A DNA stretch of 54,439 nucleotides from a virus. Lineage: Duplodnaviria; Caudoviricetes. A program made the translations under genes and the position numbers. Positions 3,600 through 11,296 of the stretch are shown one piece after another. The notes beneath the pieces were generated by a model. The model worked only from the letters and a program-made list of their open reading frames with translations, searched no databases and was not told where the DNA came from. Within the stretch, counting starts at the first letter, position 1. Each line of letters begins with the position of its first letter. The DNA lies in the IMG/VR virus record IMGVR_UViG_3300034073_002739, positions 1 to 54,439 of that record; one strand, given 5' to 3'.

Positions 3600-3794
3600 A
3601 TGACAAAACAAGAAGCCTTAATTATCTTACAAGCTCTACCAGACGATGCCGAAGTAACCCTTATTGTAGGCCAATGTAACTTGTGGCAAATTCCTGAATA
3701 TAATCCACACCTCTGGAAGGCTCCACAATGGCAAATGCCTCAATATGATCCAAACAATCTATATAGGATAACTTGTGAAAATAAAACCTCGTAA
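3600..3794 (+). CDS. Hypothetical protein
   Basis: ORF downstream of promoter, AGAG RBS. Confidence 0.6.
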   Translation: MTKQEALIILQALPDDAEVTLIVGQCNLWQIPEYNPHLWKAPQWQMPQYDPNNLYRITCENKTS

Positions 3795-3891
3795 TCCCCT
3801 TGTGGCTCTAGCACATAAACGTCGTGCTGGATCGCACACCAAAACCCACAAGCAAATTCGTGGTAAACTAAATCGCAAACTGGATGCATAA
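3775..3891 (+). CDS. Small very basic peptide (38 aa) overlapping tRNA-Lys 5' end
   Basis: GTG start after AGGA; MKIKPRNPLVALAHKRRAGSHTKTHKQIRGKLNRKLDA; stop lies inside tRNA-Lys. Confidence 0.5.
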   Translation: MKIKPRNPLVALAHKRRAGSHTKTHKQIRGKLNRKLDA

Positions 3892-3956
3892 CTCAACGGT
3901 AGAGTAACCGGCTTTTAACCGGTAAGCTGTGGGTTCGAATCCCCCTGCATCCACCA
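3882..3956 (+). tRNA. tRNA-Lys(TTT)
   Basis: GGATGCA/TGCATCC, ACCGG-CT-TTT-AA-CCGGT, ACCA. Confidence 0.95.
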
Positions 3957-4016
3957 TATTAAAACATACTACTAAGAGTCCAGGTTCATAGCGTGGCATA
4001 GTGTGTTTCAATATGG
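3954..4016 (+). ncRNA. CCATA...TATGG stem-closed RNA cassette E
   Basis: 3954-3971 pairs with 3999-4016 (17/18, one G-U); starts on tRNA-Lys CCA. Confidence 0.6.
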
Positions 4017-4024
4017 AAAACTTT

Positions 4025-4118
4025 ACTAGCATAGTTTAATGGTAGAACTCCGAGCTTATACCTCGGCATGGCTCTAGATTGGGGCACGGTCTAGGTTCGA
4101 ATCCTAGTGCTAGTACCA
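4025..4118 (+). tRNA. tRNA with TAT (Ile) anticodon and long variable arm
   Basis: ACTAGCA/TGCTAGT acceptor, CCGAG-CT-TAT-AC-CTCGG, 24-nt variable region with GCTCT/GGGGC stem, GGTTCGAATCC, ACCA. Confidence 0.85.
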
Positions 4119-4121
4119 CTT

Positions 4122-4191
4122 AAGGCGAAAAGGGTAGCTCCCCTGTTAATTCTGCAAAATTAACTAGCCTATTAATACTCTTGCAGGAGTA
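4122..4191 (+). promoter_or_regulatory. Structured leader with kissing loop over HNH gene RBS
   Basis: AGGC/GCCT junction with AGGG/CCCT and GTTAATT/AATTAAC hairpins; loop CTGCAA complementary to loop TTGCAG of TACTC/GAGTA hairpin containing GGAG. Confidence 0.55.
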
Positions 4192-4196
4192 CACAA

Positions 4197-4718
4197 ATGT
4201 ACACTAAACCTATTAAAATATTAGAAGGCCTAAAGGCCGGATACCAGCAATTTAGAGACCCTGAACATCCTCTAAGTTATTCTTCTGATGGGTCTGTTTA
4301 TTTACATAGACATATTGCTAGCCTAAAAATAGGCAGATGGTTAAAAAGTAATGAACACGTACACCACATAGATGGTAATAAATTAAATAATGATCCAGAT
4401 AATCTACAAGTATTAACTAATAAAGAACATGGATTATTACATAACTTAAGTAATACGTCTACAATATCATGCACAGTTTGTAAAACTTTATTTAAACAAA
4501 TAAATAAAACAGTAAAATACTGTAGTACAAAATGCTTTCATGAATCAACAGTAAAAAACAATGAAATAACCAAAGAATTATTAGATAGTCTTATACCTTA
4601 TAATTCTTGGGTTTCTTTAGGTAAAAAATTTAATTACTCAGATGTAGGAATAAAAAAGAGAGCAAAAGCACTTGGATGTGATTTATCTAAAATAAATTCC
4701 TACAAATATAAAATTTAG
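4197..4718 (+). CDS. Free-standing HNH homing endonuclease with C-terminal Zn finger
   Basis: YLHRHIA...VHHIDGNKLNNDPDNL HNH motif; CTVC...YCSTKC; AT-rich relative to neighbours. Confidence 0.9.
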   Translation: MYTKPIKILEGLKAGYQQFRDPEHPLSYSSDGSVYLHRHIASLKIGRWLKSNEHVHHIDGNKLNNDPDNLQVLTNKEHGLLHNLSNTSTISCTVCKTLFKQINKTVKYCSTKCFHESTVKNNEITKELLDSLIPYNSWVSLGKKFNYSDVGIKKRAKALGCDLSKINSYKYKI

Positions 4719-4808
4719 TGAGTTGGATGAGAGGCTTAAATCAACGGTTTGCTAAACCGTCGTTTCAGGAAACTGGGACCGTGGGTTCGAATCCCACACT
4801 CACTGCCA
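4717..4808 (+). tRNA. tRNA-Ser(GCT)
   Basis: AGTGAGT/ACTCACT, TT-GCT-AA loop, long variable arm, G73 + CCA. Confidence 0.95.
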
Positions 4809-4819
4809 CGGAGAATACT

Positions 4820-5119
4820 ATGGATCATGATAAACTAATAGCCGCTTTAGATAGCATAATTATTAAAGCTAAAAATGTTAAACGCGGAGATAGCGTTAGG
4901 TGGAACTCTAGTGGCGGTGTAGCTAGAGGCAAAGTTACCAAAGTAATTACAGACGGCGAGGAGCAAATCCCCAACTCTAGTTTTAAGATTACAGGCACAC
5001 CGGATGATCCAGGGGCTCTTATTCGTGTTTACCGTGAACAAGACGGCGAATACAAACCTACAGACACTATTGTAGGGCATAAGGTAAAAACTCTAACAAA
5101 AATTCCTGCACTGGATTAA
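4820..5119 (+). CDS. DUF2945/Hva1 Tudor-like protein
   Basis: GDSVRWNSSGGVARGKV...GTPDDP...VGHK pattern; GGAG RBS; true start 4820, not 4718. Confidence 0.7.
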   Translation: MDHDKLIAALDSIIIKAKNVKRGDSVRWNSSGGVARGKVTKVITDGEEQIPNSSFKITGTPDDPGALIRVYREQDGEYKPTDTIVGHKVKTLTKIPALD

Positions 5120-5121
5120 TT

Positions 5122-5274
5122 ATGCCTTGCTATAAATGTTCAAATGGTAAGTACAAATACGGTCAAAAAGGCAATTGTCAGTTTGATACCCTAGCGGCGT
5201 GTAAGGCTGCTGAAGCAGCTATTCATGCCCGCGAAAACGAAAAGCCTAAAAAAGAAGAAAAACCTAAAAAATAA
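5122..5274 (+). CDS. Small Cys-containing hypothetical protein (50 aa)
   Basis: MPCYKCSNGKYKYGQKGNC...; fills gap exactly up to tRNA-Glu. Confidence 0.6.
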   Translation: MPCYKCSNGKYKYGQKGNCQFDTLAACKAAEAAIHARENEKPKKEEKPKK

Positions 5275-5349
5275 GCACCCATCGACTATCGGTTAGGTCA
5301 ACACCCTTTCAAGGTGTAGAGACGGGTTCGACTCCCGTTGGGTGTACCA
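5275..5349 (+). tRNA. tRNA-Glu(TTC)
   Basis: GCACCCA/TGGGTGT, CT-TTC-AA loop, ACCA. Confidence 0.95.
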
Positions 5350-5354
5350 ACTAT

Positions 5355-5433
5355 CTGAGTGTAGGAAAGTCAGGCTCAATCCGTCTCGTTTGGGGCGAGA
5401 AGATCGCAGGTTCGAATCCTGCCACTCAGACCA
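5355..5433 (+). tRNA. tRNA-Pro(TGG)
   Basis: CTGAGTG/CACTCAG, TT-TGG-GG loop, ACCA. Confidence 0.95.
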
Positions 5434-5438
5434 ACAAA

Positions 5439-5514
5439 ACCACTGTAGTTCAATGGACAAGAATATCTTGCTACGAACGAGAAGATAAAGGTTCGATTCC
5501 TTTCAGTGGTTCCA
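5439..5514 (+). tRNA. tRNA-Arg(ACG)
   Basis: ACCACTG/CAGTGGT, CT-ACG-AA loop, TCCA. Confidence 0.95.
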
Positions 5515-5526
5515 AGAACAATTAGG

Positions 5527-5601
5527 TGTGACTGAACCCAAAAAGTGAGGGAGCAGGCTGTGAACCTGTTTTGCTAGCGGGAGCGTTACCCGTCAGTCAC
5601 C
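5527..5601 (+). tRNA. Atypical tRNA-His(GTG)
   Basis: GTGACTG/CAGTCAC, CT-GTG-AA loop, C73; T at -1, T-loop AGCGTTA, no encoded CCA. Confidence 0.75.
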
Positions 5602-5608
5602 CCTAATT

Positions 5609-5684
5609 GCTGCTTTAGCTGATGTGGTCATAGCAACGGTCTGAAGAATCGTGGAACCCTGTTCGATCCGGGGAAGCAGCACCA
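5609..5684 (+). tRNA. tRNA-Phe(GAA)
   Basis: GCTGCTT/AAGCAGC, CT-GAA-GA loop, ACCA. Confidence 0.95.
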
Positions 5685-5685
5685 C

Positions 5686-5760
5686 AGCCGATTAGCTCAG
5701 TGGTAGAGCAATGTTTTGATAAAGCAGAGGTCGCTGGTTCAATCCCAGCATCGGCTACCA
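5686..5760 (+). tRNA. tRNA-Ile(GAT)
   Basis: AGCCGAT/ATCGGCT, TT-GAT-AA loop, ACCA. Confidence 0.93.
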
Positions 5761-5873
5761 GTTTCGGTTAGCTATAGAGCCTTAATACCTATAGTCGCAT
5801 TCTATACCGGCGTAAGAGTATAGCGTTAACCATAGCAGACGATAAGTGCTATGCCGGACAGGTAACCGGCTCC
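5761..5873 (+). ncRNA. Four-way-junction RNA directly after tRNA-Ile
   Basis: CGGTTA/TAACCG encloses hairpins GCTATAG/CTATAGT, CTATAC/GTATAG and CATAGCA/TGCTATG. Confidence 0.55.
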
Positions 5874-5897
5874 TTACACACAACACACGAGGTTATA

Positions 5898-6137
5898 ATG
5901 ACAACTAAAAATCCCTATGAGATTCGTACTGAGCTTCTGCAACTTGCTCAGACTTATCTTGAAAACCAGTTTCAAGCTAACAAACAGTTTGCCGAACAAA
6001 GCTATCAACAAATGGTAGAGCTTGGCCAAGTTCAGCCAGAAGATTGGGCTAAACATATGCCCAAATTCTATGATTTCAAAGACATTTTGGAACGAGCCAA
6101 AGAACTCTACGGCTTTGTAAATAATGAAAGTCGCTGA
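5898..6137 (+). CDS. Phage hypothetical protein
   Basis: KNPYEIRTELLQLA...ILERAKELYGFV; GAGG RBS. Confidence 0.8.
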   Translation: MTTKNPYEIRTELLQLAQTYLENQFQANKQFAEQSYQQMVELGQVQPEDWAKHMPKFYDFKDILERAKELYGFVNNESR

Positions 6138-6282
6138 GCTATGGCAGCGCGTCTTGGAGTGTGTTCGTCCGTACACATTCGAGGATTATGTCAAAGAATA
6201 CGGCCCCCAAGATCACAAAGAACTAGAAGAACTTGAGCGTAAATGGTCGCAAAGTGGCGGCTGGTTTAACAAATCACAATAA
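6124..6282 (+). CDS. Small hypothetical protein (52 aa)
   Basis: MKVAELWQRVLECVRPY...ELEELERKW; overlaps previous stop. Confidence 0.55.
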   Translation: MKVAELWQRVLECVRPYTFEDYVKEYGPQDHKELEELERKWSQSGGWFNKSQ

Positions 6283-6289
6283 CAACAGA

Positions 6290-6363
6290 CGCGCGGTAGA
6301 GAAAAGGCATCTTACCAGTCTCATAAGCTGGAGTTGAGGGTTCGAGTCCCTCCTGCGCAACCA
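6290..6363 (+). tRNA. tRNA-Met(CAT), initiator-like
   Basis: C1xA72 mismatch, CT-CAT-AA loop, ACCA; lacks the three G-C anticodon-stem pairs. Confidence 0.88.
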
Positions 6364-6380
6364 ACACACAGGACACACAA

Positions 6381-6839
6381 ATGTCACAAACTATTAAAAA
6401 TTTGGAAGCAGCATTTGCTGGCGAGAGTCAGGCTTATGCTAAATATTTGTATTTTGGTCGTCTAGCAGATGAGCTGGGCCAATATAAAATTGCTGATCAC
6501 TTTTATCAAACCGCCGAACAAGAAATCAAACACGCCCATAGTCATCTTCAGCTCTTAATCGGCGAACCCGACATCCTAGAGTGCATTCAAATGGCCATTG
6601 ATGGTGAAACTTACGAATATACAGTAATGTATCCTGAAATGGAGCAACAAGCTATTCACGAAGGCAGAGAACTGGACGCTAAAGAAGCACACGAACAAGC
6701 ACGAGAGAGTAAGATTCATGCTGATGAATTTAGAGAACTACTTGAAATGGCAACAAAACGCTTTGGCGCACTGGCTCGAATTGAGCAAAAACATGCTGAA
6801 GGTTATCGTCGACTACAGGAGGCAGCAAATGAGGAGTGA
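6381..6839 (+). CDS. rbr: Rubrerythrin (ferritin-like di-iron domain)
   Basis: TIKNLEAAFAGESQA..KY...E..HA...AIDGETYEYTVMYP...E..H motifs. Confidence 0.92.
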   Translation: MSQTIKNLEAAFAGESQAYAKYLYFGRLADELGQYKIADHFYQTAEQEIKHAHSHLQLLIGEPDILECIQMAIDGETYEYTVMYPEMEQQAIHEGRELDAKEAHEQARESKIHADEFRELLEMATKRFGALARIEQKHAEGYRRLQEAANEE

Positions 6840-6963
6840 TATGGTTTGTGTAGTTTGTGGTCATGTTCATGACACTGATCTTGAAGGCGAATGGGGATTG
6901 CTTCCCGACGACTTTGAGTGTCCCGAGTGTGGCTGTGGTAAAGAAGATTACATGGCTATGTGA
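6829..6963 (+). CDS. Rubredoxin
   Basis: CVVCGH...LPDDFECPECG; AGGAGG RBS before ATG 6829. Confidence 0.88.
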   Translation: MRSDMVCVVCGHVHDTDLEGEWGLLPDDFECPECGCGKEDYMAM

Positions 6964-6970
6964 TCCCCTT

Positions 6971-7044
6971 CTCCTAGTGGTGTAATGGCAGCACGATAGT
7001 CTCCAAAACTATTAGTTGCGGTTCGAGTCCGTACTAGGAGGCCA
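6971..7044 (+). tRNA. tRNA-Trp(CCA)
   Basis: CTCCTAG/CTAGGAG, CT-CCA-AA loop, GCCA. Confidence 0.95.
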
Positions 7045-7058
7045 CGAAAAATTTTGTC

Positions 7059-7087
7059 TTGACCCTAAACCTCAGCGATGCTATAAT
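7059..7087 (+). promoter_or_regulatory. Sigma70-type promoter
   Basis: TTGACC-17-TATAAT, extended -10 TG, upstream A/T tract. Confidence 0.8.
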
Positions 7088-7117
7088 ATTGTTTCTGTGA
7101 TTGATTTAGGAAACCAA

Positions 7118-7342
7118 ATGAACCACTGTACAGCCTTGCAGCAAGTTACTACTCCCTTGTTCTTGATTCCTGCCTATGGTCGCCGCTATCGCTCACGCGA
7201 AGCAGCCTTGCAAGACTGGCTAAAAGGCAAAGACTTTCAGATTCTTGGAGGGCCGTACTGTTCAATTCGTGACGTAAATCAAATGCGACAAGAATATGCT
7301 CGTATGTACATTCAGTACGAGTTTGGCACTGTTGAGGTTTAA
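7118..7342 (+). CDS. Hypothetical protein
   Basis: AGGA RBS; LIPAYGRRY...DWLKGKDF; start 7118 rather than 7016 (inside tRNA). Confidence 0.75.
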   Translation: MNHCTALQQVTTPLFLIPAYGRRYRSREAALQDWLKGKDFQILGGPYCSIRDVNQMRQEYARMYIQYEFGTVEV

Positions 7343-7349
7343 CCCATTT

Positions 7350-7433
7350 GCGACTGTGGCGTAATAGGTAGCCGCAAGGGACTTAAAATCCCTCGCCTTG
7401 TGCGTGCCGGTTCGAGTCCGGCCAGTCGCACCA
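7350..7433 (+). tRNA. tRNA-Leu(TAA)
   Basis: GCGACTG/CAGTCGC, CT-TAA-AA loop, variable arm, ACCA. Confidence 0.95.
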
Positions 7434-7583
7434 TAACACTAGACCCGAAAGCGAAGCAGGCTTAGCTAGCCTGGCCTGACTATCGAGGCTAGACCTCTCC
7501 CACTACTGTTTAGCCACAGACCACTAGTAGGGATGCCCGCCACGATTGGCATTAAACGGATATGATAGTGTCTAGTACTATGG
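7431..7583 (+). ncRNA. CCATA...TATGG stem-closed RNA cassette F
   Basis: 7431-7444 pairs with 7570-7583 (12/14); internal CAGGCT/AGCCTG, GCCT/AGGC, CTACTG/TAGTAG, GCCA/TGGC; loop ACTATC complementary to GATAGT near 3' end. Confidence 0.6.
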
Positions 7584-7783
7584 AAACAACATATAAATAC
7601 CCACTTTACCCAACCCTTAACGCGTATTTGTTTAGTATGCTTGGGTCTCGAGAACTAGTAAATAAGTGGTACGAGTCACCTAATCGAGCATTTGATCTTA
7701 AACCGCCTATACAACTAATCGAATCAGGAGATGTTGGTAGAGCCCAAGTATACAAATATGTGTTAAATATTGCACACAGATAA
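7580..7783 (+). CDS. Stand-alone Xre/MbcA/ParS antitoxin C-terminal domain-like (DUF2384) protein
   Basis: MLGSRELVNKWYESPNRAFDLKPPIQLI...GRAQV matches W..PN.A....P..L....G...V pattern; start 7580 or 7562. Confidence 0.6.
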   Translation: METTYKYPLYPTLNAYLFSMLGSRELVNKWYESPNRAFDLKPPIQLIESGDVGRAQVYKYVLNIAHR

Positions 7784-7859
7784 TGTCTAGTAGCTCAGTA
7801 GGTAGAGCAGGTGACTGTTAATCACCCTGTCGCTGGTTCGATCCCAGCCTAGACAGCCA
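7784..7859 (+). tRNA. tRNA-Asn(GTT)
   Basis: TGTCTAG/CTAGACA, CT-GTT-AA loop, GCCA. Confidence 0.95.
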
Positions 7860-7861
7860 TG

Positions 7862-7936
7862 GCTGATATAACACAGAGGTAGTGTACTTTCTTGGTAAGA
7901 AAGAGGTCACAGGTTCGAATCCTGTTATCAGCACCA
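7862..7936 (+). tRNA. tRNA-Thr(GGT)
   Basis: GCTGATA/TATCAGC, TT-GGT-AA loop, ACCA. Confidence 0.95.
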
Positions 7937-7942
7937 TAAATC

Positions 7943-8410
7943 ATGAAAAAATTTGACTTAGAACAAATCAAACAATTTATTCAACAGCAAAAACCAAGTA
8001 CCAAAATCTACCTTGGAGTAGATTCAGAACGTGTTTGCTCTAACAATAAATGGTACGCAGACTATCACATAGCCATTGTAGCCCATATTGAGGGCAAGCA
8101 CGGATGTAAAGTATTTGGGCAAATTGTTCGTGAGCGTGATTACGATAAGCATAAAAATAAACCTACTATGCGTTTAATGCAAGAGGTTTATAAGGCCGGA
8201 GAACTATTCTTGGCACTAGAAGATGTGCTTAAAGACAGAGATGTAGAAATTCACCTAGATATAAATCCCAGTGAAAAGTACGCAAGTAATCATGTTGTTA
8301 GTCAAGCTCTTGGATACATAAAAAGTACTTGCAATCTTCAAGCCAGAATCAAACCACAAGCCTTTGCAGCTACCGGAGCTGCTAATCGACTAAAACACTT
8401 ACTCAAATGA
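7943..8410 (+). CDS. RNase H-like YkuK family protein
   Basis: IYLGVDS...RLMQEV...EIHLDIN...IKP.AFAA..AA motifs. Confidence 0.82.
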   Translation: MKKFDLEQIKQFIQQQKPSTKIYLGVDSERVCSNNKWYADYHIAIVAHIEGKHGCKVFGQIVRERDYDKHKNKPTMRLMQEVYKAGELFLALEDVLKDRDVEIHLDINPSEKYASNHVVSQALGYIKSTCNLQARIKPQAFAATGAANRLKHLLK

Positions 8411-8628
8411 ACAAAGATCGTTTTGACCTTGAACAAGAAATTCTAGACTGCTGGCACATTGTTGATGACCTAGATGTTGTTATTAACAGCGAACAGCTCA
8501 ATCTTAATGACGATATGCTTAATATCTTGATAGGACTTAAGCAACTATACCAACTTAAGTTTGAGCGCACGTTTCAAACATTTGAGCAGCTTGTTTCAAA
8601 ACGTGAACTAGATAAACACATTCTATAA
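8407..8628 (+). CDS. Hypothetical protein
   Basis: DRFDLEQEILDCW...; ATGA-type overlap with previous gene. Confidence 0.75.
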   Translation: MNKDRFDLEQEILDCWHIVDDLDVVINSEQLNLNDDMLNILIGLKQLYQLKFERTFQTFEQLVSKRELDKHIL

Positions 8629-8632
8629 TATA

Positions 8633-8706
8633 GCCCCGTTAGTTAAATGGCATAACACTTGACTTGTAATCATGAATTGTTAGTTCGATTCTAGCACGGG
8701 GCACCA
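8633..8706 (+). tRNA. tRNA-Thr(TGT)
   Basis: GCCCCGT/ACGGGGC, CT-TGT-AA loop, ACCA. Confidence 0.93.
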
Positions 8707-8717
8707 TAAGGACTTAT

Positions 8718-9113
8718 ATGGATACTCAAAAACAAGACTTAGTAGATACACTGGCTAAAGCTAGTGATGCTTGGAATGAGGCTATGGATGAGATTGAACA
8801 AGATAGTGAACAGTACTGGAATAGCTTGTCCAAAGAAGATCAACTAAAAGTGTTTTGTGCAGTATGCCGCCGCATCTATCAAGGTGATATTGTAGACAAA
8901 GGCACTTATCGCTATGTGCTCTATCAAGTATTTGGTTTTGGACCAGAAGCCTATGCCCCTGCACAACTAGCAGGGTATTTAGCCATTCATAATAGTATTT
9001 TTGACAACGAGCATGATTTTAAGCTACTAGCTGCATTTGCAAGTTTTCTAGGACAAACTACTGACGAAGTTGCTAAAAATGTCGACAGATTCTTACATAA
9101 ACAGTACCTATAA
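8718..9113 (+). CDS. Hypothetical protein
   Basis: 131 aa ORF, AAGGA RBS. Confidence 0.8.
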   Translation: MDTQKQDLVDTLAKASDAWNEAMDEIEQDSEQYWNSLSKEDQLKVFCAVCRRIYQGDIVDKGTYRYVLYQVFGFGPEAYAPAQLAGYLAIHNSIFDNEHDFKLLAAFASFLGQTTDEVAKNVDRFLHKQYL

Positions 9114-9285
9114 GCCCGTAGCTAGCCCTTGCGTTTTTGTTTGCCGTTTAAATAGTGAAAATTATTGCGTAGGTTGTTTTCGACACCTAGATGAAATCAG
9201 AGATTGGTCACAAATGAACATTCAAGAACAGCGACGTATTATGCAAGACTTGGAGACTAGAAGTGACAAAATCTTCGGACCCTAA
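9079..9285 (+). CDS. DUF1289 family Cys-rich protein
   Basis: SPCVFVCRL...CVGCFRHLDEIRDWSQM. Confidence 0.8.
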   Translation: MSTDSYINSTYKPVASPCVFVCRLNSENYCVGCFRHLDEIRDWSQMNIQEQRRIMQDLETRSDKIFGP

Positions 9286-9365
9286 ATCATTAGCTTGGTC
9301 AGATCGTTTTCCTGCACTTAACCTATTCAACTACAATAGATTTTGGCATTGGCTAAAGGAATTTA

Positions 9366-9494
9366 ATGGTGATAAAAAAGCTGGCTAGCTATTTCATACT
9401 AGGCTTAATCCTTTTCGGATTAAGCCTAGTTATCATTCCCATTATAGGCATTGTTGTAGGCATTGTCTGGGACTATATAAAAGTGCTCTTTTAA
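9366..9494 (+). CDS. Small hydrophobic membrane peptide (42 aa)
   Basis: AAGGA RBS; MVIKKLASYFILGLILFGLSLVIIPIIGIVVGIVWDYIKVLF. Confidence 0.55.
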   Translation: MVIKKLASYFILGLILFGLSLVIIPIIGIVVGIVWDYIKVLF

Positions 9495-9818
9495 GCCCTT
9501 TTATATAGTTGTATGAAGTTAACCAAAAAGTGTCTTGGACGCGGCTATCGTATGCCGCCACCTCCACCAAAAGCATACTTCTCTGACCACAAGATGACTG
9601 GCATACCGGGCCGGACTTGGCAGAGTATAATCAACCCCAAGTATGCTTTTGATGGGGGTGACAGGATTCGACAGGGCAAAGAGTAGGGCGATGGACAACT
9701 CGACACAGAGAGTCGTAAAAAACTAAACAAAATAAACGCAAACGATGAAACGTGGGCATTAGCCGCCTAAACTCGGCTTAGGGTTTCCCCAGTTTTCCTC
9801 GTAACAGAAAAACTGGGA
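9495..9818 (+). ncRNA. ssrA: Circularly permuted (two-piece) tmRNA; tag ANDETWALAA
   Basis: Acceptor piece ends GGAC-GCGGC/GCCGC-CACCTCC-ACCA (9569) upstream of coding piece starting GGGGGTGACAGGATTCGAC (9654); G3-U70; tag ORF 9738-9770; outer ends approximate. Confidence 0.9.
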
Positions 9819-9821
9819 CAC

Positions 9822-9872
9822 AATGGCCTTTTAAGGCATTTTAATTTAACTTTCTTGCTCTCATGAGGAGAA
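9822..9872 (+). promoter_or_regulatory. ROSE-like RNA thermometer
   Basis: TTCTTGCT pairs over AGGAGAA Shine-Dalgarno of the sHsp gene, preceded by GCCTT/AAGGC hairpin. Confidence 0.6.
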
Positions 9873-9877
9873 CACCG

Positions 9878-10318
9878 ATGACACTAAAAGATATTAATAA
9901 ATACTTTCTAGGCTTTGACGAGGCTCAGGCTCGTATCAACCAGCTACACAATCACATGGTTTCTAAAGCAAATGTAAACTATCCACCTTATAATGTTCGT
10001 AAGGCCGGAGAACACCAATACTTGCTAGAACTTGCTGTTGCTGGTTTCCATGAAGATGAAATTACTGTAGAAACAACAAAAGGTGAGCTTATTATCTCTG
10101 CCAAAAAATCAGAGAGTGAAAGCGATGCAAACTACAGTACTTGGATTCATCAAGGCATTGCCTACAGAGGTTTTACACGTACCTTTTATCTAGACAATCA
10201 CTATGAGGTTCTACAGGCTGAGCTTAAAGATGGCTTGCTAAAGGTTTACCTAGGACTTCACGAAGATAAAAAGCCTAAACGCATTCCGATTGGCAATAAA
10301 CAACATATTGAGCTTTAG
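9878..10318 (+). CDS. Small heat-shock protein (Hsp20, IbpA-like)
   Basis: NYPPYNV...LELAVAGF...IHQGIAYRGFTRTF...LKDGLL...KRIPI. Confidence 0.93.
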   Translation: MTLKDINKYFLGFDEAQARINQLHNHMVSKANVNYPPYNVRKAGEHQYLLELAVAGFHEDEITVETTKGELIISAKKSESESDANYSTWIHQGIAYRGFTRTFYLDNHYEVLQAELKDGLLKVYLGLHEDKKPKRIPIGNKQHIEL

Positions 10319-10406
10319 AAGCGTGGTCGAGTGGTTTAAGGCACCTGTCTTGAAAACAGACGATCCTTTACGGGGTCCGTGAGTTCGAATCTCACCGCTT
10401 CTGCCA
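10317..10406 (+). tRNA. tRNA-Ser(TGA)
   Basis: AGAAGCG/CGCTTCT, CT-TGA-AA loop, long variable arm, GCCA. Confidence 0.95.
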
Positions 10407-10408
10407 AC

Positions 10409-10441
10409 AAAATCAGCAGCCCAAATAGGCTGCTGATTTTT
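10409..10441 (+). terminator. Intrinsic terminator
   Basis: AAAATCAGCAGCC/GGCTGCTGATTTT hairpin with T tract. Confidence 0.75.
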
Positions 10442-10577
10442 ACACTGCGCCAAACCAACATGACAAAAATTGCACCTAGTGGTTACTTGATGATTTTCTT
10501 TCCAAAACAATTTATCAAGTGGTCTATGGACGAACACGGATTCTGGGCTATAGACCTTATAACCTTAGATTAAACTA

Positions 10578-10654
10578 GCGGATATAGTGTTTAATGGTTA
10601 GCACGTAAGTCTTCCAAACTCAAAGTATCAGTTCGAATCTGATTATCCGCTCCA
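10578..10654 (+). tRNA. tRNA-Gly(TCC)
   Basis: GCGGATA/TATCCGC, CT-TCC-AA loop, U73 + CCA. Confidence 0.95.
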
Positions 10655-11223
10655 TGAAAAAAATTATACTCTCCTTATTTGACTATAGCGGCAATTGGCC
10701 TAAATATTATCGTGATAGTGGCAACTATGATGTATATCAAGTAGATATTAAACTTGGTTTAGATATACTTAGTATAGATCCTAGTGAATTACCACAACCC
10801 ATACATGGCATCTTAGCCGCTCCACCATGTACTGACTTTGCTAGCAGCGGAGCACAATACTGGCAGCAAAAAGACTTGGATGGGCGTACGGCGGCTAGCC
10901 TAGAGCTCGTAGATAAAACTCTAGAAATTATTGAGTATCACAAGCCCACATGGTGGGCGCTAGAAAATCCAGTAGGCAGACTATCAAAACTACGGCCCAA
11001 ACTAGGCAATCCTTGGTATTTTCAGCCACACTGGTTTGGTGATGCCTATACAAAGAAAACTGGATTGTGGGGCACATTTAACCGTGAACTACCTCAATCG
11101 CCAGTCGATCCCGATCCTAATTCGTGGATAATGAAATTAGGCGGTAAATCAGAACGAACAAAAGAATTGCGAAGCATGACTCCGCTTGGATTTGCTTTTG
11201 CATTTTACTTAGCCAATCCCTAG
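10654..11223 (+). CDS. Short C5-cytosine DNA methyltransferase
   Basis: LSLFDYSG (motif I), AAPPCTDF (IV), ALENPVG (VI), C-terminal RS.TP.GFA. Confidence 0.85.
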   Translation: MKKIILSLFDYSGNWPKYYRDSGNYDVYQVDIKLGLDILSIDPSELPQPIHGILAAPPCTDFASSGAQYWQQKDLDGRTAASLELVDKTLEIIEYHKPTWWALENPVGRLSKLRPKLGNPWYFQPHWFGDAYTKKTGLWGTFNRELPQSPVDPDPNSWIMKLGGKSERTKELRSMTPLGFAFAFYLANP

Positions 11224-11296
11224 TACCTTAGCTCAGTGGTAGAGCATTGCCTTTACACGGCAAGGGTCGTGGGTTCGAAACCCTCAGGTACTACCA
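11222..11296 (+). tRNA. tRNA-Val(TAC)
   Basis: AGTACCT/AGGTACT, TT-TAC-AC loop, ACCA. Confidence 0.95.

Follow-up and report, generated by a model that had tools for sequence, protein, structure and literature searches.

Stop codons inside phage tRNA genes: probable packing at three genes and a possible stop-less message for a small basic one

Four protein-coding genes of an uncultured phage end inside the tRNA genes that follow them. The phage is represented by the IMG/VR record IMGVR_UViG_3300034073_002739 (Duplodnaviria; Caudoviricetes), and the window analyzed here is that entire record (54,439 bases, 37.5% G+C, CheckV completeness 51), estimated to be about half of a genome of ~100 kb. 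The genes for an HNH endonuclease, an Hsp20 protein and a DNA methyltransferase-like protein each end in a TAG whose last two bases begin a tRNA (a T/AG junction), and a basic open reading frame (ORF) of 38 amino acids (aa) stops 10 nucleotides (nt) inside tRNA-Lys. We give a probability of roughly 55% to the reading that the three T/AG overlaps are products of packing, and that the small ORF belongs to a family whose message has its end set by RNA processing and lacks a stop codon, in the manner of arfA and brfA, with a likely link to ribosome rescue. The original prediction, made from the sequence alone, had proposed that RNase P turns all four messages into non-stop mRNAs; that the 38-aa ORF could itself be an arfA-like gene, as its layout suggests by analogy, had gone unnoticed there.

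The small basic gene and its stop-less layout

The 38-aa ORF and the tRNA that it enters are placed as follows. ARAGORN and Rfam agree on the same bases for the 5′ ends of the four overlapped tRNAs, here and below, and ORF ends were taken from the ORF list, the sequence and a junction script.

3775-3891, + strand: 38-aa basic ORF with a GTG start; its TAA (3889-3891) is +8 to +10 of tRNA-Lys, and its last 10 nt are +1 to +10 of tRNA-Lys
3882-3956, + strand: tRNA-Lys(UUU), CCA encoded (ARAGORN; Rfam 70 bits)

The small ORF is a real protein-coding gene with a core under purifying selection. A scan of IMG/VR found it in 45 other phage loci, all but one of which (L082) lie inside tRNA clusters (2-14 tRNAs in <=2.5 kb). 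Among the 34 distinct 28-codon cores from these 46 phage loci (window plus 45), pairwise differences number 5459, 4252 and 9485 at the three codon positions. Synonymous and nonsynonymous codon differences stand at 5626/5769 in frame, as against 926/10748 and 334/11166 in the two alternative frames. Only in the frame of the ORF are third-position and synonymous differences dominant, which shows that it is protein-coding.

The protein has relatives in phages and in bacterial chromosomes. A word search found seven homologues at 80-95% identity, and the copy in one phage relative (L001) starts with ATG. The profile of the homologues matches 204 clusters at E <= 1e-3 in a full HMMER scan; most of these are proteins of 40-110 aa, and the match is to the N-terminal part. 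The core consensus is KPRNPxVALAxxRKAGSH, followed by a Lys/Arg-rich tail, and the proteins are very basic. A scan with narrow patterns, which covers part of the family's range and one genome per species, gave 58 chromosomal loci, and most of these copies are ~50 aa long with an ordinary stop. By recognition of names, 52 of the 58 record titles refer to betaproteobacterial taxa (Thiobacillus, Burkholderiales, Rhodocyclaceae, Azoarcus, Ideonella and others); the other six go no further than Pseudomonadota or Proteobacteria. The small proteins, whether the window ORF, its homologues or the chromosomal copies, have no match among Pfam or NCBIfam models. Searched against PDB sequences, the profile gave nothing and the single protein one chance-level match (E = 2.5), and the ESM Atlas matches are unnamed small-protein clusters only.

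The window copy of the small gene lacks a stop codon ahead of tRNA-Lys(UUU), as do the copies in 23 of the 45 other phage loci. Reading continues into the tRNA for 10, 30, 80-86 or 128 nt, in all three codon phases, and the loci comprise at least 10 different 5′ sequences of tRNA-Lys. Measured over 17 distinct junctions from the Gly codon of the AGxH motif, tRNA +1 comes after 45-58 nt and the stop after 60-174 nt. The zero-spacer junction with tRNA-Lys persists over these 17 junction sequences, with cores down to ~46% identity. In the window, a cut by RNase P would leave 35 codons plus 2 nt of the small ORF and no stop.

A second type of structure occupies the same position. Ten further phage loci have a stem of 16-27 pairs that opens 50-56 nt past the Gly codon; the stop follows 19-120 nt later, in the loop or beyond. 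Stem sequences vary from locus to locus in this group, and the encoded peptide tails are not conserved. Three of the phage hairpins were folded, with z-scores of -4.3 to -8.0, and 0 of 200 shuffles were as stable. Hairpins of ~20 or more pairs also lie inside the extended ORF, before the stop, in four Rhodocyclales chromosomes (L009, L022, L054 and L060) and in L082; z-scores range from -5.0 to -8.1 for L009, L022, L060 and L082, and the L054 hairpin has a dG of -36.7. Two unrelated signals thus sit at one set distance from the motif, and the position of the stop drifts. A processing or termination structure ahead of the stop is the arrangement by which ArfA and BrfA are controlled, and the correspondence here is one of layout.

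This arrangement can be compared with two described systems. In E. coli arfA, RNase III or termination shortens the message at an internal stem-loop, and in B. subtilis brfA a rho-independent terminator precedes the stop codon, according to one account (PMC8012679). Like E. coli arfA, the small gene encodes a small basic protein, its ORF enters a long RNA stem before the stop, and the protein is poorly conserved after the structure; a non-stop message and a product under transfer-messenger RNA (tmRNA) control are predicted for it. The Rhodocyclales copies and the hairpin-type phage copies are the arfA-like ones. Unlike arfA, the small gene shows no detectable sequence similarity to it, has only 32-38 codons before the cut, and is phage-borne beside a phage tmRNA; a rescue role would be assigned to its protein by analogy. 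Furthermore, the truncating element in 24 phage loci is a tRNA gene with its RNase P site, and our literature search found no such element described for arf genes. With brfA the small gene would share a programmed non-stop message and, as proposed, a small factor that binds the mRNA channel. BrfA also shows that this control logic arose more than once with unrelated sequences. It differs in the kind of truncating signal, in its unrelated sequence and in its taxon, and its dependence on RF2 has been shown experimentally. The arfA analogy drawn by the original prediction is thus well supported for the 38-aa ORF; at the three larger genes it is not.

On the reading that we favor, an RNA-processing signal, in place of a stop codon, would close the coding region of the phage small gene; it would lie 45-58 nt past the Gly codon of AGxH. 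Either tRNA-Lys(UUU), cut by RNase P, or the 16-27-pair stem, as an RNase III-like site, would serve as this signal. The mature message would then lack a stop codon and, depending on how cleavage is timed relative to translation, ribosomes would stall on it. The product would be tagged by tmRNA (ssrA) and destroyed while trans-translation has spare capacity, and untagged protein would be released only when that capacity is lacking. The small protein would most likely bind the ribosomal mRNA channel and either act in rescue or sense it, beside the phage tmRNA. It is the shared layout with arfA and brfA that leads us to read it as a protein gated by trans-translation, and possibly as a rescue factor.

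The tmRNA named by the original prediction is real, and it lies 5.5 kb from the small ORF.

9440-9844, + strand: two-piece (permuted) tmRNA gene (RF04321 107.1 bits, cut-off 47; RF01850 107.4 bits, cut-off 84)

Its tag frame (9738-9770) encodes ANDETWALAA, so that the covariance matches are joined by the hydrophobic ...LAA end of a two-piece tmRNA. The tag of the relatives, ANDETFALAA, is one residue apart (W in the window, F in the relatives). The window tmRNA was found by Rfam and was not called by ARAGORN, which called the homologous gene in seven of seven relatives. Co-occurrence of tmRNA and small gene is partial: of 25 other phage records that contain the small gene, most of them fragments, 6 have a permuted tmRNA that scores above cut-off. 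These six comprise five of the tRNA-Lys group and L096; the only complete genome with terminal repeats is among them. None of the 25 records has a one-piece tmRNA above cut-off.

A third family of this kind would matter for ribosome rescue. To our knowledge, arfA and brfA, both genes for rescue factors, are the only ones known to have programmed non-stop messages, and a third, unrelated family with their layout would point to a candidate rescue factor. In phages, the message of this family would be cut through tRNA maturation; in some bacteria, long hairpins would serve instead. We tentatively extend the reading, at odds that we judge to be clearly below even, to a new class of rescue or rescue-sensing factors in Betaproteobacteria and their phages, gated by trans-translation mostly through the cut at tRNA-Lys by RNase P; the small ORF would be its phage member, and the phage would carry both arms of rescue. 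If so, phages manipulate or supplement ribosome rescue beyond tmRNA, with the tmRNA and a back-up factor both placed in the tRNA cluster. The candidate falls in Betaproteobacteria, of which only some have ArfA: a 2024 survey confines ArfA to Gammaproteobacteria, some Betaproteobacteria and a few Bacillus (PMC11633108). No Pfam ArfA match was found in any of five bacterial genomes that carry the small family, and a six-frame ArfA search of the window returned nothing. Our literature search found no phage-encoded Arf-like gene, no arf-type gene truncated by a tRNA and no gene of any kind for which a cut by RNase P at an overlapping tRNA-Lys gene is described as the truncation device; it did not extend to supplementary lists (Burroughs and Aravind 2019; ArfT tables).

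Several observations weigh against a stop-less, rescue-linked role. One lineage of six loci (L067-L071 and L073) has lost tRNA-Lys and keeps its first 10 nt with the stop, another tRNA following 6 nt later; the small protein thus evidently tolerates normal termination. The stop lies 4 nt before tRNA-Val in L098 and abuts a weak tRNA (37.2 bits) in L077, and L081 shows no structure. Among the chromosomal copies, 54 of 58 have an ordinary stop, with no hairpin standing out in the GC-rich DNA. The +10 overlap of the window is ordinary on its own, because its stop is the tRNA's own U8-A9-A10, and real genes in these clusters (e.g., HNH) often overlap tRNAs by 4-24 nt. A base-rate count of ORFs that read into tRNAs gave 80 of 267; most of these are frames that cross upstream tRNAs, and the count is unfit as a control. 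The gene and tRNA-Lys could also be one inherited module rather than a selected pairing. Of the remaining phage loci, L096 has a tRNA-Lys-like anticodon stem, seen by eye only, and the small-ORF locus of L102 ends at the contig end.

Homology points the same way. Membership in ArfA (PF03889) is rejected: Pfam gave no match for the window ORF (E <= 1), 10 homologues (E <= 10) or five chromosomal copies (E <= 1), the hhalign probability against E. coli ArfA is 0.15, and 466 of 3000 shuffles did at least as well as E. coli ArfA against the family hidden Markov model (HMM). A likeness to bS21, a protein that occurs in phages, had been noticed by eye and is likewise rejected (hhalign probability 0.1; no Pfam match; S21 scored by the family HMM no better than 503 of 3000 shuffles). 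Since no homology to ArfA or bS21 was detected, the function of the small gene is argued from size, charge and layout. The ArfT/KGG-repeat family was also considered, and the small proteins are placed outside it by their want of a Pfam or NCBIfam match, Pfam presumably holding a KGG model. KGG is a charged-helix repeat family, as presented by Burroughs and Aravind (2019).

These points can be assembled into an account in which all four overlaps, that of the small ORF included, are packing. The small protein would be made from an unprocessed or co-transcriptionally translated message and would tolerate any tail, and the hairpins would be ordinary RNase III sites or terminators. The frequent 4-24 nt overlaps in these clusters, the six loci that keep their stop after losing tRNA-Lys and the ordinary stops of most chromosomal copies all speak for it. 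We nevertheless find it a rather doubtful account, because the tRNA-Lys junction, unlike that of the methyltransferase described below, persists across its 17 forms and in three phases, with read-through to 128 nt. Furthermore, a second structure type sits at the same 45-58 nt distance, and the tails lose conservation past that point while the core stays under purifying selection. It is on these grounds that we prefer a processing-defined end for the small-gene message.

Chromosomal neighbors give no consistent clue to the function of the small gene. In Thiobacillus denitrificans (L041, 407-2278) it is part of an operon, flanked by rnfE and nth, and there is an ATGA overlap. It directly follows rtcB in Pseudoduganella (L024, 265-1620) and hslU in a Burkholderiaceae metagenome-assembled genome (L012, 3-1370), and its neighbors in Polaromonas are EamA and DUF1345; five other flanking ORFs had no match. 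Family members with their own stop end in WDD or WDS in P0016, P0018, L024 and L077, an ending that could be a second conserved C-terminal feature. In L095, L101, L103, L105, L107 and L108, a long stem (~50-190 nt past the Gly codon) encloses ~80-100 nt, and its 3′ arm ends at the next tRNA. In L098, a GOLLD RNA (453-908; 223 bits) that contains a tRNA precedes the small ORF by ~270 nt.

Three stop codons shared with tRNA genes

The three larger genes each end 2 nt inside a tRNA, and all coordinates given by the original prediction proved exact against ARAGORN, Rfam and the ORF list.

4025-4118, + strand: tRNA of 94 nt, long in its variable arm, which ARAGORN calls Ile(UAU) (Rfam 61.5 bits); upstream edge of the HNH insert
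4197-4718, + strand: free-standing HNH endonuclease gene, 173 aa (HNH_3 2e-14); TAG at 4716-4718 gives AG to tRNA-Ser(GCU)
4717-4808, + strand: tRNA-Ser(GCU), A1-U72, with T before +1 (ARAGORN; Rfam)
9863-10318, + strand: Hsp20/alpha-crystallin family gene, 151 aa (HSP20 2.6e-13); TAG at 10316-10318 gives AG to tRNA-Ser(UGA)
10317-10406, + strand: tRNA-Ser(UGA), A1-U72 (ARAGORN; Rfam)
10578-10654, + strand: tRNA-Gly(UCC) (ARAGORN); its CCA ends in the A that opens the methyltransferase ATG
10654-11223, + strand: C-5 cytosine DNA methyltransferase-like gene, 189 aa (DNA_methylase 1.2e-5); TAG at 11221-11223 gives AG to tRNA-Val
11222-11296, + strand: tRNA-Val(UAC), A1-U72 (ARAGORN; Rfam 68 bits)

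Read from the sequence, full 7-bp acceptor stems support the A1 start of both tRNA-Ser and of tRNA-Val. With the small ORF, there are four same-strand overlaps between a coding sequence (CDS) and a tRNA, three of them involving a Pfam-positive CDS.

Tight packing makes such overlaps easy to form. Genes and tRNAs in the window are co-oriented with spacers of 0-8 nt, and all 13 ORF-to-tRNA junctions have offsets of -8 to +10 nt, so that an ORF often terminates at the first stop offered by the next tRNA. The base before the tRNA is T in 11 of 20 cases, and a tRNA that starts with AG therefore readily gives TAG, coding or not. Moreover, 15 of the 21 tRNAs have TAG or TAA at +8 to +10. The borrowed stop would thus be either T(-1)+A1G2, at the three AG-starting tRNAs, or U8-A9-R10. 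Overlapped tRNAs make up 4 of the 21.

The idea that overlaps give non-stop mRNAs has already been published (Hudson, Lau and Williams 2014, PMC4131195). That work predicts non-stop mRNAs from same-orientation overlaps of CDSs with tRNA or tmRNA genes, including an smpB-ssrA overlap in Carsonella, and counts 250 upstream-CDS overlaps in 115,660 bacterial t(m)RNA genes. As in its cases, maturation of the tRNA would remove the upstream stop, and the three T/AG junctions and the +10 junction are further examples. The survey is described as covering bacterial chromosomes and Pfam-positive proteins only, with overlaps at about 1 in 15,000 mRNAs and confined to close relatives (PMC4131195). With this scope it would have missed the small family, in which, unlike in the overlaps it reports, one protein family keeps its layout across many divergent phages. 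The three T/AG overlaps add little beyond this: they are further cases of the published idea and of packing in phage tRNA clusters.

The methyltransferase stop is older than its junction with tRNA-Val. We compared 51 related loci over the 600 nt after each gene. The +2 junction with tRNA-Val occurs in six, five of which are on contigs of seven close relatives; one locus has a +1 junction (tRNA-Asp), one a -1 junction (tRNA-Ser), and six have a tRNA 50-267 nt downstream. The other 37 lack a + strand tRNA in this span. Among these 37, 15 relatives (77-81% identity) end in ...LANP or ...LANS followed by TAG, and because the same ending and TAG occur without a tRNA, the TAG predates the junction.

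The HNH gene uses a T/AG that was already there. IMG/VR holds seven relatives collinear with the window, ~98 kb each, with an Hsp20 74-77% identical to that of the window. The HNH gene is absent from all seven, and the T/AG of tRNA-Ser(GCU) is kept in each, with no upstream ORF of >=45 aa; since it is present without HNH, it preceded the gene. The tRNAs that flank the site are 5 nt apart in L001, as against a 598-nt gap in the window. Judged by this pattern, the HNH gene is a mobile insert between two tRNAs. An HNH domain together with presence and absence between collinear relatives marks it as a free-standing HNH homing endonuclease. Free-standing homing endonucleases occur in phage tRNA clusters, T4 SegB being one example. 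Like that type, the HNH gene lies between two tRNA genes and comes and goes among close relatives; unlike SegB, it is HNH rather than GIY-YIG, and its homing is putative.

The Hsp20 junction at +2 is kept in seven of seven close relatives, and the only distant relative of Hsp20 that was found (40% identity) has no tRNA there. Conservation of the Hsp20 and methyltransferase junctions is confined to relatives at 74-87% identity, and no sign of selection for stop loss was seen at the HNH, Hsp20 or methyltransferase junctions among the relatives compared.

Simple packing, which the original prediction had kept as a fallback, fits the three T/AG junctions best, given the small offsets and the varying junctions. 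They would be by-products of packing and of the insertion of tRNA or homing-endonuclease genes. RNase P would presumably still clip the HNH, Hsp20 and methyltransferase stops, and nothing shows use of this. Thus, one part of the prediction stands on physical grounds, in that a cut at +1 would remove all four stops partly or wholly. Its corollary, that the output of the three larger genes is coupled to tRNA maturation and trans-translation, appears very improbable. The conservation of overlaps that it offered as a check is likewise found for the tRNA-Lys layout of the small ORF and not for the variable methyltransferase junction or for HNH.

Deliberate non-stop messages, with the output of HNH, Hsp20 and methyltransferase tied to tRNA maturation and to the phage tmRNA, are in our view very improbable. 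It is true that the stops straddle the RNase P site, that the tmRNA gene lies 19 nt upstream of Hsp20, and that the Hsp20 and methyltransferase junctions are both kept in seven of seven close relatives. Yet this conservation goes no further than the close relatives, the methyltransferase keeps its TAG where there is no tRNA and varies in its junction where there is one, HNH borrows a T/AG already in place, and AG-starting tRNAs after the common T(-1) form TAG regardless of coding.

A punctuation like that of mitochondria is also improbable, although slightly less so, and it is compatible with packing. In animal mitochondria, excision of tRNAs sets the 3′ ends of mRNAs, and incomplete stops are completed by polyadenylation. 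By sequence, each of the three T/AG overlaps would leave exactly a terminal U, which a host poly(A) polymerase could complete to UAA, as it could any stop overlap of <=2 nt by adding A; the overlap would then be costless. Beta- and gammaproteobacteria have poly(A) polymerase I. However, bacterial poly(A) tails usually mark RNA for decay, and unlike in mitochondria the setting is bacterial and phage, polyadenylation is hypothetical, and a minority of genes is affected. Neither a PolyA_pol nor an SmpB gene was found in the window, which covers an estimated half of the genome. Nor would such punctuation help the small ORF, which has its stop at +8 to +10 or farther in. Packing of the three genes remains the account that we prefer.

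The start of the methyltransferase gene is also shared with a tRNA. Its ATG shares the A with the CCA of tRNA-Gly (window 10578-10660; L111-L116) or of tRNA-Cys (L135), which leaves no methyltransferase ribosome-binding site outside the tRNA. The message is therefore either translated before 3′ processing or near-leaderless afterwards.

The tRNA cluster and its host

The window carries 21 tRNA genes in its first 12.7 kb, all on the + strand and all encoding CCA (ARAGORN). A megablast of the region against deposited phages gave tRNA-sized matches only. Relatives of the region also occur among the contigs of a wastewater metagenome, from a run labelled RNA-Seq that is probably DNA. The host is probably a betaproteobacterium, because the two-piece tmRNA is of the beta type and the chromosomal homologues of the small gene are mostly in records named for betaproteobacteria.

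A terminator-like hairpin lies directly 3′ of tRNA-Ser(UGA), at about 10407-10445; it was read by eye and was not listed by the consensus scan. This adjoining hairpin suggests that tmRNA, Hsp20 and tRNA-Ser(UGA) form one transcription unit. The counterpart of the 94-nt tRNA in L067 and L073 (1324-1421) was missed by ARAGORN and reaches only 39.9 bits in Rfam.

A 73-aa ORF (7562-7783) has the C-terminal domain of Xre/MbcA/ParS-type antitoxins (9.7e-8) and abuts tRNA-Asn with zero spacer. The relatives have further overlaps of the packing type: an Xre-like ORF ends at +10 of tRNA-Asn, and a 73-aa protein, unchanged in length, has its TGA or TAG stop at +4 of a tRNA-Cys that was inserted. This tRNA-Cys stop at +2 to +4 is TGA in three and TAG in four of L001-L007; the acceptor stems differ, and the stop is kept.

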